From positions 320,001 through 384,000 of the forward strand of contig CAXXUA010000006.1 in the NCBI GenBank assembly GCA_963663765.2: a DNA stretch of 64,000 bases, written 5' to 3'. Positions 13,780 to 17,950 of this stretch are shown one piece after another (the stretch's first letter is position 1; each line of letters begins with the position of its first letter). Source of the stretch: Candidatus Poribacteria bacterium (lineage in GTDB: Bacteria; Poribacteria; WGA-4E; WGA-3G). Made by a program: the position numbers and the translations under genes. A model generated the notes under the pieces. It did no database searches. It was not told where the DNA came from and saw nothing but the letters and a program-made list of their open reading frames with translations.

Positions 13780-14345
13780 TCACAGTCGCGACCGGGAGGT
13801 CGCTCCTACCATTTCATTCACAGTCGCGACCGGGAGGTCGCTCCTACCAACACATTCACAGTCGCGACCGGGAGGTCGCTCCTACCATTTCATTCACAGT
13901 CGCGACCGGGAGGTCGCTCCTACCAACACATTCACAGTCGCGACCGGGAGGTCGCTCCTACCAACACATTCACAGTCGCGACCGAGAGGTCGCTCCTACC
14001 AATTCATTCACAGTCGCAACCGAGAGGTCGCTCCTACCAACACATTCACAGTCGCGACCGGGAGGTCGCTCCTACCAATTCATTCACAGTCGCGACCGGG
14101 AGGTCGCTCCTACCAACACATTCACAGTCGCGACCGGGAGGTCGCTCCTACCAACACATTCACAGTCGCGACCGGGAGGTCGCTCCTACCAACACATTCA
14201 CAGTCGCGACCGGGAGGTCGCTCCTACCAACACATTCACAGTCGCGACCGGGAGGTCGCTCCTACCAACACATTCACAGTCGCGACCGGGAGGTCGCTCC
14301 TACCAACACATTCACAGTCGCGACCGGGAGGTCGCTCCTACCAAC
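13780..14345. repeat. tandem array of ~38-bp REP unit (~15 copies)
   Basis: cacattcacagtcgcgaccgggaggtcgctcctaccaa repeated; reverse complement begins GTAG-GAGCGACC hairpin. Confidence 0.92.
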
Positions 14346-14548
14346 GTGTATCCCCTCTTGTGGGAGGTGTTTTCAACCCCGACCTTTTACGCGGCTTTGG
14401 GCACAGAATCACGGATTGCGCGGAAGAACGCGGAAAAGATCCCCATCAACATTTATCGCGTAGGATAGGCATTTTCTAAGGAATAGGATCTATTGCAGAT
14501 GTCTTCTCCGCGAACTCCGTGTAATCCGCGATTGTGAAATCGGGGTTG

Positions 14549-15244
14549 TTATCGTTTGTTTTTGATGCTTCCCCATGTGGTTGTGAGCTTGGCTTTTGGG
14601 TCTACGGGAAAACTGGAATCGCCGAAGTATTCGATTTCGCCAATTTGAAAGTATGCGCCAGTCGGGTGCAATGGGGTTTCAAAAGTAACAAACCGAAAAA
14701 AACGATATCCGGTTTTTGGCTCGTCGTAATCATCGCCTGCATCAAAACGGACGACTTGAAGTCGCTCATTCCAAAAACTATCGCCGTCGTGCGCAAAGAT
14801 GGTCGTAAAATTATCACCGTCGTTTGACCCCTGAATTTCCCATACTGAAGGGTCTCTCCCGGGATAATCGTTTGCTGAAGATACGGTGAAATGTGTCAAT
14901 AAGTATGCGTCTTCAAACTCAGCCGTCACGTGTAAACCGTCTTCTGGAACGCCGTTTGCAGGTCCGCAGCACCATTTGTCGTTGCTGGGACCAAGTCGGT
15001 TATCAAAGACGTTAAATGCGGATTCCCCGCCCCCGAATCCGGGTTCGTCGTTGGCTGTGAAAATGGCGTTGTATCCTTCATCTGTATCCGGTTGCCCGTC
15101 ATCTTCTGGGTCGGTGAGGTCGCCGCCGAGTAGTGATGCTGTCTGTGTGCCCAAGATTTCCTCTGCTTGTACTATGTCGTTGTTGTTGATAGCAAAACAG
15201 GCTATCAGCAACACAATTCCTGCGAATACCAAGATAGATTTCAT
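14549..15244 (-). CDS. secreted discoidin/F5-8C-like protein with C-terminal PKAKLTTTWGSIK motif (copy 1)
   Basis: Signal peptide; 'RDPSVWEIQGSNDG', 'YRFFRF', 'QIGEIEYFG'. Confidence 0.8.
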   Translation of the reverse strand: MKSILVFAGIVLLIACFAINNNDIVQAEEILGTQTASLLGGDLTDPEDDGQPDTDEGYNAIFTANDEPGFGGGESAFNVFDNRLGPSNDKWCCGPANGVPEDGLHVTAEFEDAYLLTHFTVSSANDYPGRDPSVWEIQGSNDGDNFTTIFAHDGDSFWNERLQVVRFDAGDDYDEPKTGYRFFRFVTFETPLHPTGAYFQIGEIEYFGDSSFPVDPKAKLTTTWGSIKNKR

Positions 15245-15559
15245 GCTATATTATCTCCTAAATGTAATGAATCTCACTTTTGCGTGAGTTTTGTGTTAAG
15301 TTTTCTGGCAGTTTGATTGCACTGCACCTATTTATTTTGTTGAGTTTGTCTGAACCAGGATTTTCAGGATTTCCAGATTTTCAGGATTTCCCCTATCCAT
15401 GTATTTATGATGTGCGTTTATGCTTACTTTTGATTAGCAGCCTAATGAGCCAAACTCATAATCCTGGTAATCTGGTAATCCTGTCCATCCTGGTTCAGAC
15501 AGAATCGCGGCGGACCCGTTACATCCAAGTCATCCGCGAAATCTGTCGGGGGTGGGTTG

Positions 15560-16258
15560 TTATTTGTTGTTTTTGATGCTTCCCCATGTGGTTGTGAGCT
15601 TGGCTTTTGGGTCTACGGGTGTCGTTCCGACTTCGCCGAAGTATTCGATTTCGCCAAGTTGAAAGTATGCCCCAGTCTCGCCCGCTGCAGTGGTCAAAGT
15701 GACAAACCGAAAGAACTTGTATGCTTCGGTTTGAGCGTCGTAATCGTCGCCTGCATCAAAACGGATGACTTGCAGCCGCTCAGTCCACAAACTATCGCCT
15801 TCGTGAGCAAAGATGGTCGTGAAATCCTCGCCATCGTTTGACCCCTGAACTTCCCAGACTATCGGGTCTCTTGCGGGTGCATCGTTTGCTGAAGATACGG
15901 TGAAATGTGTCAAGATGTATGTCTGCTCAAGCTCAGCTGTGATGTGTAGTCCATCATCTGGAATGCCGCCATTAGGTCCGCAACACCATTTTGCATTGCC
16001 GCCGCCGAGTTGGTTATCAAAGACGTTAAATGCATTTTCTCCGCCACCGAATGAGGGTTCGTCGTTGGCTGTAAATATGGCGTTGTACCCTTCATCTGCA
16101 TCAGGCTGACCGTCGTCTTCTGGGTCGGTGAGGTCGCCACCGAGTAGTGATTCTGTGCCTGTGCCTAAGACTTCTGATGCCTGTGCTATGTCGTTGTTAC
16201 TGATAACAAAACAAACTGTCATTAACACAATTCCTGTTAATGCTAACATATTTTTCAT
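15560..16258 (-). CDS. secreted discoidin/F5-8C-like protein (copy 2)
   Basis: Close paralog of 14549-15244. Confidence 0.8.
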   Translation of the reverse strand: MKNMLALTGIVLMTVCFVISNNDIAQASEVLGTGTESLLGGDLTDPEDDGQPDADEGYNAIFTANDEPSFGGGENAFNVFDNQLGGGNAKWCCGPNGGIPDDGLHITAELEQTYILTHFTVSSANDAPARDPIVWEVQGSNDGEDFTTIFAHEGDSLWTERLQVIRFDAGDDYDAQTEAYKFFRFVTLTTAAGETGAYFQLGEIEYFGEVGTTPVDPKAKLTTTWGSIKNNK

Positions 16259-16786
16259 GTTGTTTAATCTCCTAAAGATTTTGAAATGAATCTCACTTTT
16301 GCGTAAGTTTCATGTTAAGTTTTCGGGCAGTTTGAATGAACTGCATCTATTTATTTTACTAAGAGTGATTTATTATAACAAATTTTTATTAACAAAGTCA
16401 ATATCATTTTTTCTGAATCACTGAGGTCGTGATTCTGTCTGAACCAGGATTTTCAGATTAGCAGGATTAGAGTCTGAAGCAGTTGGGTTCCATTCCGAAA
16501 AATCACTTGCGATCAGCAAAAACACTTGTGTCTGTCTGAACCAGGATTTACAGGATTTTGAGTTTTTCAGGATTAGTGTCTGAAGCAGTTTGGTTCTATT
16601 CCGAAGATAGCTATAGGTTCCATTCCGAAGACAGCCTTGCGATCAGAAAAACTCTTGAAGCGGTAAATCCTGGTAATCTGGTAATCCTGTAAATCCTGGT
16701 TCAGACGAGAGGGCGCGCTTACAAAGCACCAAATCAAGAAATCAACGGTATGAATGCCATTTAGGCATTCCCCGCCTGCATTTGGG

Positions 16787-17464
16787 TTATCGTTTGTTTT
16801 TGATGCTTCCCCATGTAGTTGTAAGTTTGGATTTTGGGTCTACGGGAAAGCTTGTTTCGCCGAAGTATTCGATTTCGCCAAGTTGAAAGTTCTGTACGGT
16901 TTCAAAAGCAATAAACCGAAAAAACCGATATCCGGTTTTTGGCTCTTCGTAATCATCGCCTGCATCAAAACGGATGACTTGCAGCCGCTCAGTCCACAAA
17001 CTACCGCCGTCGTGAGAAAAGATGGTCGTGAAATCCTCGCCGTTGTTCGACCCCTGTATTTCCCAGACTGTTGGGTCCCTATTAGGAGTATCGTTCGCTG
17101 AAGATACGGTGAAATGTGTCAATGCGTATGCCTCTTCAAACTCAGCAGTTACGTGTATGCCTCCCGCCGGAAGGCTTTGAGGTCCTCAGCACCATTTTGC
17201 ATTACCGCCGCCGAGTTGGTTATCAAAGACGTTAAACGCATTTTCACCGCCGCCGAATCCGGGTTCCTCGCTAGATGTGAACGTGGCGTTGTATCCTTCA
17301 TCTGCGTCAGCAGCACCGTCGTCTTCTGGGTCGGTGAGGTCGCCGCCGAGCAGTGATGCTGTTTGTGTGCCTAAGACTTTTTCTGCATGTGCTATATCGC
17401 TCGTGTTGATAACAAAACAGGCTATCATCAACACAATTCCTGCGAATACCAAGATAGATTTCAT
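16787..17464 (-). CDS. discoidin-like protein copy 3 with in-frame TGA at 17186-17188 (selenoprotein or nonsense pseudogene)
   Basis: ORFs 17186-17464 and 16787-17122 are in the same frame; the junction reads KWC*GPQSLPAGGIHV where paralogs read KWCCGP. Confidence 0.75.
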
Positions 17465-17950
17465 GATGTTTTATCTCCTAGATGTAATGAATCTCACTTT
17501 TACGTGAGTTTCATGTTAAGTTTTTGTGCAGTTTGATTGCACTGCACGTATTTATTTTTACTAACTTGTGTTCTACCATAACATATTTTAAATAAAAAGT
17601 CAATATCATTTTTTTCTGAATCGCTGAGGTCGCGAATCTGTCTGAACCAGGATTTTCAGGATTAGCGTCTGAAGCAGTTTGGTTTCCATTCCGAAGATAG
17701 CCTTGCGATCAGGAAAATTCCTTGTGTCTGTCTGATCTAGGATTTTCAGGATCTTGAGATTAGCAGGATTAGTGTCTGAAGGAGTTTGGTTCCATTCCGA
17801 AGATACACATAGGCGTCAACTTAAGGATTTTAACCTCTTGTGGGAGGGGTTTGCAACACCGATTTTATGTGCATTTCCGCTCAAATCGGTGTTGCAAACC
17901 CCTCCCACAAGAGAAAAAGAACCCTACATCAACAGAAAAGGACAAACGAT

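Follow-up and report, generated by a model that had tools for sequence, protein, structure and literature searches.

A minus-strand gene of the window (the whole stretch of 64 000 nucleotides that was analysed) is very likely to encode a selenoprotein, and we put the probability that its UGA at codon 93 is a selenocysteine (Sec, U) codon at about 0.9. This is the single in-frame TGA of the gene, in the context AKWC-U-GPQSLPAGGIHV, and with the TGA translated as Sec the frame runs on for a total of 225 residues before it is closed by TAA (Table 1); the predicted segment across codon 93 reads ...WC-U-GPQSLPAGGIHVTAEFEEAYALTHFTVSSANDTPNR. We propose that SelB with Sec-tRNA(Sec) would be recruited by a small intragenic hairpin 10 nt downstream of the UGA, so that codon 93 would be read as Sec and one product of 225 residues made, in which Sec would replace the second residue of an invariant vicinal Cys-Cys pair. 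Given its putative signal peptide, its discoidin/CBM32-like beta-sandwich and a C-terminal tag found across Poribacteria, this product probably serves as a binding module that is exported or sits at the surface.

The gene is copy 3 of a tandem array, and a whole-genome tblastn search found these three copies only. Copies 1 and 2 are 78 and 73 % identical to it, respectively, and both read WCCGP at the motif. An earlier note on this DNA, made from the sequence and its ORFs, had described an in-frame UGA within a frame intact to the C-terminus and had placed the TGA at the second Cys of the WCCGP of both paralogs, and it was right on each of these points. Its description of the segment after the UGA as locally rewritten holds in part: copy 3 is one codon shorter than both paralogs directly after the motif, but this is a trait of one Sec clade only, and 12 other Sec copies are full-length here.

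Table 1. Positions in the window of the focal gene, its parts and neighbouring features
Feature	Position	Strand	Description and basis
Probable selenoprotein gene, complete	16787..17464	-	Putative signal peptide + discoidin/CBM32-like domain with C92-U93 + C-terminal Poribacteria tag; translation with TGA=U, Pfam, AF2, Foldseek
Probable Sec-UGA, codon 93	17186..17188	-	Aligns with second Cys of invariant KWCC
Cys92 (TGC), vicinal partner of residue 93	17189..17191	-	Sequence and alignment of 35 homologues
bSECIS-type apical hairpin	17159..17175	-	7-bp stem GCCUUCC/GGGAGGC, GGC loop 17168-17166
Probable signal peptide, residues 1-27, MKSILVFAGIVLMIACFVINTSDIAHA|E	17384..17464	-	Inferred from sequence; model helix at residues 2-20
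C-terminal tag PVDPKSKLTTTWGSIKNKR, Poribacteria-wide	16790..16846	-	Alignment; pLDDT <50 for residues 212-225
Tandem Cys paralog, copy 2 (WCCGP)	15560..16258	-	Sequence, whole-genome tblastn
Tandem Cys paralog, copy 1 (WCCGP)	14549..15244	-	Sequence; inside Sec clade on tree
Promoter-like site TTGACT-17-TATGGT, 9/12	17575..17603	-	Upstream of gene; consensus match only, 7 sites found vs 5.3 expected

Occurrence of TGA at codon 93

A six-frame search of the genus (E ≤ 1e-40) found the family in 33 of the 40 genomes; the loci were fetched and codon 93 was located in every copy, and 80 related loci were kept from public genomes. Full-length copies make up 117 of the 126 distinct ones. Codon 93 is TGA, and the sole in-frame stop, in 25 of the 117, and it is TGC or TGT in 91; the remaining full-length copy is a pseudogene (L082) with four stops, and its motif was not placed. 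The 25 intact TGA copies are spread over 22 of the 40 species genomes, with protein identities of 62-84 %. Four of these 22 genomes have Sec copies only at E ≤ 1e-40, and the other 18 also hold Cys paralogs. Stops elsewhere in the frame are present in just 3 of the 117 full-length copies, one of which is the TGG to TGA change of L041 described below; the terminal stop of the 25 Sec copies is TAA throughout, and TGA ends no full-length copy. The recurrence of TGA at codon 93 exceeds chance. The UGA is aligned with Cys in homologues, and TGA orthologues occur in other Sec users with a conserved downstream frame. The earlier note had suggested looking for the same TGA and hairpin in orthologues, and 21 further species genomes from this genus do have them, in place of Cys.

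The family does include pseudogenes, among them L082, L041 and the frameshifted L065 and L081. L041 (1501-2193, minus strand, genome G001) is a Cys-type copy in which codon 135, for the conserved Trp of DPTxWE, has changed from TGG to TGA as a singleton; this copy is likely to be a pseudogene or an assembly error, and it shows how a chance nonsense mutation appears in this family.

When the search was extended to the phylum, the family was found in 99 of 176 genomes, and the TGA copies among the matches listed are all in the window's genus (39 further matches exist). The sister genus has the family in 60 of 65 genomes, with no TGA copy among the matches listed. One further CU copy lies on a metagenome contig (L173).

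Exchange of Sec and Cys

In a maximum-likelihood tree of 63 full-length copies, built with the column of codon 93 removed, the focal gene falls within a clade of 14 (99 % SH-aLRT) that comprises 13 Sec copies and copy 1 of the window, a Cys copy. The tree calls for at least seven changes between Sec and Cys, five of which are forced by well-supported branches, and a tree of 114 copies gives the same number of changes. Adjacent Sec and Cys paralogs are found in five genomes (G000, which is the window genome, G017, G051, G041 and G014).

There may also be a sub-lineage that has Sec at the first Cys (UC). In L081 (563-991, minus strand, contig C170 of genome G015) the TGA lies at the first Cys, giving KW-U-C-GP, with the same hairpin after it and a frameshift further downstream, and five short public proteins of this sub-lineage (P0351 and P0363-P0366) end exactly in ...NAKW. 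The 63 motifs of the JGI metagenome loci comprise no UC, one CU and 62 CC, and the UC variant thus rests on the frameshifted L081 and the five short proteins ending in KW.

Constraint beyond the TGA, sequence reads and public gene calls

Comparison of the 25 Sec copies by the Nei-Gojobori method (299 pairs) gave a dN/dS of 0.220 for codons 29-92 and of 0.249 from codon 94 to the end, so that the region downstream of the TGA, where the earlier note had proposed that dN/dS be determined, matches the region upstream. Restricted to the 21 codons that follow the TGA, the ratio is 0.29 in the shorter clade (13 copies) and 0.23 in the other 12 copies, and this purifying selection excludes a restart of translation at the downstream GTG.

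The TGA is found without variant in four sequencing runs, two of DNA and two of RNA libraries, from different studies. It is crossed by the DNA contigs X2 (16974-17234, 0 differences) and X6 (17097-17236), and by the RNA-library contigs X10 (16747-17236) and X7 (17093-17219), which come from two studies, in which DNA carry-over is possible and which are no strict proof of transcription. The contigs of all four runs thus have the TGA unchanged, at a site where the earlier note had allowed that reads might reveal an error or a recent nonsense allele.

Of 116 short relatives in public collections, 62 have ...KWC as their last residues (57 of these are exactly 92 aa long) and 27 are C-terminal fragments, many of which start with MTAEF. 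Public gene calls cut the gene in two at the TGA. Since gene callers split the gene in this way, as the 62 fragments ending in KWC attest, selenoproteome counts for the sponge-symbiont Poribacteria are too low.

Selenocysteine machinery

The window genome (6.35 Mb in 15 contigs, 97.8 % complete) encodes SelA (620.8 bits) and SelB (361.6 bits), both above the curated cut-offs. A tRNA-Sec gene (78.5 bits, passing its curated cut-off) lies directly after selB, and selD (367.6 bits, above the curated cut-off) has an in-frame TGA of its own at the active-site position. The complete set of selA, selB, selC and selD, which the earlier note had singled out as something to look for in the genome and by which membership among bacterial selenoprotein genes is judged, is therefore present. 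Across the genus selA passes the cut-off in 37 of the 40 species genomes; the three misses are genomes that are 73, 81 and 95 % complete, and the last of these (G016, in 300 contigs) yielded no selA although it has a TGA copy of the gene.

Internal stops are absent from selA and selB, from which it follows that TGA is no general sense codon in this organism. The window genome has 19 matches to AhpC/TSA (PF00578, peroxiredoxin family), 10 of which contain one in-frame TGA, and these together with the Sec machinery argue for an active, selenoprotein-rich genome. The UGSC family (NF041046) had zero matches in the window genome, and likewise zero in the control genomes. The TGA-bearing peroxiredoxin-family genes are located on contigs C5, C6, C8 and C15 (for example C6:87407-88231 and C5:472289-473413); in the nine that we examined the TGA is at a conserved motif position, and several of them occur in tandem pairs.

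The hairpin downstream of the UGA

The hairpin GCCUUCC-GGC-GGGAGGC begins 10 nt after the UGA and its loop lies 17 nt after it; its sequence, its position, the 17-nt distance and the G at the start of the loop are all as the earlier note had given them. In the legend to Fig. 2 of a 2026 review (PMC13188914) the bSECIS model is defined by a loop of 3-9 nt with a G within its first two positions, an upper stem of 4-16 bp, a distance of 16-37 nt from the UGA to the loop and a minimum free energy of ≤ -7.5 kcal/mol. The focal hairpin, with its GGC loop of 3 nt, 7 bp, 17 nt and -9.5 kcal/mol, satisfies all four constraints as published there. Its folding energy is nevertheless unexceptional, since the 48-nt stretch folds at -12.5 kcal/mol where shuffled versions average -11.16 (z -0.54); its energy is equalled or bettered in 55 of the 200 shuffles. 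Covariation is not significant either: the two double-sided pair changes were matched by 99 of 500 shuffles, and the covariation score was reached by 54 of 500. Taken alone the hairpin is weak evidence, not beyond chance.

Other comparisons concern the pairing of the Sec copies. Pair counting over 25 contexts found 82.4 % of cells paired, compared with 26-50 % in slid controls, and RNAalifold, run on 26 distinct Sec contexts, recovered a 4-bp core alone. A test of independent pairs for association between Sec and the hairpin had three usable pairs on supported branches (median p 0.5) and was underpowered. Every one of the 25 Sec copies has the core UUCC-NNN-GGRA, as do 25 of the 89 Cys copies, and the core is encoded by a conserved peptide, (L/I)P(A/E)(G/E)G. 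As the core is also present in that fraction of the Cys copies, the coding sequence itself partly accounts for the hairpin. The earlier note's use of the hairpin as support for a SECIS element is accordingly sound with regard to the published constraints, but the hairpin is no independent proof, being largely encoded by the peptide and shared with some Cys copies. In the 12 Sec copies outside the shorter clade the core is extended to GGC(A/U)UUCC-GGN-GGAAGGCC, and most of these add a lower ACGUG/CACGU stem.

Third codon positions within the hairpin were counted in copies that are not phylogenetically independent, and on this footing the Pro codon ends in G in 24/25 Sec and 55/91 Cys copies, and the next codon (E/A) does so in 25/25 and 31/91. 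The closing Gly codon ends in C or T in 25/25 Sec and 73/91 Cys copies, and in C in 21/25 and 6/91, under the same proviso. Third positions that are fixed in the Sec copies and variable in the Cys copies would favour a constraint at the RNA level. The amino-acid changes seen in the Sec copies (E/A and G/E) are those that preserve the stem.

Of the nine TGA-bearing peroxiredoxin-family genes examined, six have hairpins of the same architecture as the focal one, with stems of 6-7 bp and 3-nt loops that start 21 nt after the UGA; the loops are AGU, GGC, GUU and AGG, and the energies range from -4.3 to -7.7 kcal/mol. The element in selD has its loop about 17 nt after the UGA. An Rfam scan of positions 14400-17600 (E ≤ 1) gave one chance match to a miRNA family, outside the gene.

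Fold, cysteine pair and termini of the protein

The protein belongs to Pfam family PF00754 (F5/8 type C), with a score of 33.1 bits against a gathering score of 28.2 (E-value 6.7e-8); the paralogs lie just below (copy 1, 26.5) and just above (copy 2, 28.4) this cut-off. The AlphaFold2 model, made from an alignment of 35 sequences, has a mean pLDDT of 87.5, residues 212-225 falling below 50. Foldseek matched it to CBM32 modules, muskelin, APC10, neuropilin b1 and the factor VIII C2 domain (E-values from 8e-9 to 1e-5), and target-normalized TM-scores of up to 0.73 place it among the beta-sandwich (jelly-roll) proteins, so that both the Pfam match and the fold agree with the term discoidin-like used in the earlier note. 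A profile search of solved structures gave both CBM32-like modules of the GH92 mannosidase 7nsn and nothing else (E-value 1.8e-21), in an alignment that starts after the KWCC motif. A scan against NCBIfam gave no model match at E ≤ 1.

An exhaustive search of 1.84 billion representatives returned 1159 relatives at E ≤ 0.001, many of which have the domain two or three times over, in proteins as long as 2802 residues. KWCC recurs in most of the 149 distant representatives that were scanned, and C92 and C93 are invariant across the 35 aligned homologues. In the mature protein C92 and U93 are the sole Cys or Sec residues after the putative signal peptide, and with no other such residue in the mature protein the intramolecular partner of Sec can be Cys92 only. 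In seven large relatives the domain is accompanied by PA14, PKD, cadherin-like, RTX, TSP3 and C-type-lectin-like segments, domain partners that point to an extracellular binding module.

The N-terminal hydrophobic helix, an AHA-E site and the C-terminal tag suggest that the protein is probably secreted. Distant small homologues end in a classical PEP-CTERM, with VPEP, a hydrophobic stretch and RRRR; in place of this the Poribacteria copies end in PVDPKxKLTTTWGSIKNKR. The focal protein itself ends in VDPKSKLTTTWGSIKNKR and has no hydrophobic stretch there, so that it does not have the form of a PEP-CTERM/exosortase cargo. Some Poribacteria Cys copies carry the NCBI name 'PEP-CTERM sorting domain-containing protein'. 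We note that a tag of the approximate form [PS]V[ED]P..K[LA][TA]T[TS]W[GA]x[ILV]K, followed by 0-6 residues, closes 73 ORFs of the window genome.

Alternative readings of the TGA

If the TGA were a true stop, the locus would give a 92-residue peptide, signal peptide included, and, from a second start at the GTG of HVTAEF, a separate C-terminal protein about 121 residues long. Public collections do hold the 62 proteins ending in KWC and the 27 C-terminal fragments, but these are the output of gene callers and not of experiments, and we regard such a split as extremely improbable. The 10-11 codons between the TGA and the GTG are in frame, and the first 21 codons have a dN/dS of 0.23-0.29; moreover, the stop would divide one beta-sandwich fold that is modelled with confidence (mean pLDDT 87.5), it would fall always at the invariant Cys of a protein whose homologues are unsplit, and it would do so in a genome with Sec machinery and at a site followed by a bSECIS-type hairpin. 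A recent nonsense allele, a pseudogene or a sequencing error would need just one substitution, from TGC to TGA, and pseudogenes do arise in this family (L082, L041 and the frameshifted L065 and L081). The chance that one of these accounts for the TGA is nonetheless negligible, since the same TGA stands in 25 intact copies from 22 species, at 62-84 % protein identity and with a constrained downstream frame, and is unchanged in contigs of four runs from different studies; the conserved intact copies, the dN/dS values and the read contigs together refute it.

The UGA might instead be read through without Sec, either by a near-cognate tRNA that inserts Trp or Cys or by some other local recoding, and here it has to be said that the comparative data show continued translation and not the identity of the residue. 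The TGA is, however, aligned specifically with Cys, which is the classical signature of Sec/Cys exchange; the hairpin fits the SelB-type model and resembles those of the peroxiredoxin-family selenoprotein genes of the same genome; and selA and selB are without in-frame TGA, while no other TGA recurs within the family. Readthrough of this kind is thus very improbable, and we take insertion of Sec at codon 93 as the reading to be preferred.

Relation to known selenoproteins and possible role

The archetype of selenoprotein genes that depend on SelB and a bSECIS element is fdhF of E. coli. The focal gene resembles the bacterial genes of this class in having a UGA at a site aligned with Cys, both Cys and Sec homologues and a full selABCD set, and also a small intragenic hairpin with a G in the first loop positions and 16-37 nt from the UGA, the values being those of the figure legend cited above. 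It departs from the SelB/bSECIS genes known so far in its host fold, which is a lectin-type beta-sandwich and not a thioredoxin-like or other redox-enzyme fold. To our knowledge the bacterial selenoproteins described so far are, with few exceptions, redox enzymes or proteins that handle metals, and we know of no solved F5/8 type C/CBM32 member that carries Sec.

Animal thioredoxin reductase ends in GCUG. Among the proteins described in the 2026 review, SaoC, the MerB-like SaoL, HgcA, SaoB and the 2Fe-2S protein form 2 have a vicinal CU motif (PMC13188914), and the focal protein is like these, and like the reductase, in that Cys is followed directly by Sec. Those CU proteins have unrelated folds and are cytoplasmic, organometallic or redox proteins, whereas the focal CU lies inside a predicted exported discoidin module, and we claim no homology between them. 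With CBM32/discoidin proteins, such as the GH92 modules of 7nsn and the CBM32s of Clostridium perfringens, the focal protein shares the match to PF00754, the fold and, in its large relatives, the domain partners. It differs from the 7nsn modules in an N-terminal extension of approximately residues 29-102, with GGDLTDPEDDG and the invariant KWCC, that lies outside the solved structure.

By its own account, the 2026 review (PMC13188914) lists 119 prokaryotic selenoprotein families and subfamilies in its Table 1, and its main text contains no mention of discoidin, lectin, CBM, PF00754, PEP-CTERM, Poribacteria or vicinal. The main texts of BSepDB, of the deep-Sep paper and of a 2022 review contain no mention of discoidin, PEP-CTERM, Poribacteria or lectin; supplementary tables, for example BSepDB Table S2, might list the family. 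A full-text search for selenoprotein together with discoidin gave nothing on bacteria among the matches listed, and the titles and abstract openings of the literature on Poribacteria and selenocysteine do not name the family. Since the literature searched, to the extent just described, has no discoidin or lectin entry, nor, in the 2026 review, one for CBM or PF00754, we class the gene as a new family of selenoprotein that relies on the usual bacterial machinery for Sec insertion, a judgement made against main-text family descriptions.

As to chemistry, C92 and U93 being the only Cys and Sec residues of the mature protein, they most likely form a vicinal selenenylsulfide; alternatively, thiol and selenol could be free, and the pair could bind a soft metal or take part in thiol exchange. 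A Cys-Sec pair would make the invariant Cys-Cys site more reactive. We speculate that the Cys paralogs carried by 18 of the 22 genomes with Sec copies serve as a selenium-dependent backup. A broader proposal, which we advance tentatively and with some doubt, is that this is an extracellular lectin-like module of sponge-symbiont Poribacteria in which the Cys-Cys pair acts as a strained disulfide switch, or as a site for soft metals or thiol exchange, at the binding face, and that within one genus the pair has been upgraded to a Cys-Sec selenenylsulfide more than once. If so, this would be a selenoprotein built on a discoidin-type binding fold, with selenium employed outside the cell in binding or adhesion and not in classical redox catalysis. 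A conserved Sec in a predicted exported discoidin/CBM32-like module would widen the settings in which selenium is used, and it suggests that the invariant Cys-Cys has a chemical function in a large, uncharacterized family of surface domains (1159 representatives).

Flanking sequences

Between a ParA-like gene and the discoidin array, at window positions 13780-14345, there is a tandem repeat of a 38-bp unit (14.9 copies, 96 % matches) that creates long artefactual ORFs in two frames. Another repeat concerns 16700-16790 and the other spacers between the paralogs: at 16713-16787, just downstream of the focal gene, the summed depth of contigs is very high and joints are numerous in each of the four runs, and on these grounds the stretch is a dispersed repeat of these genomes.
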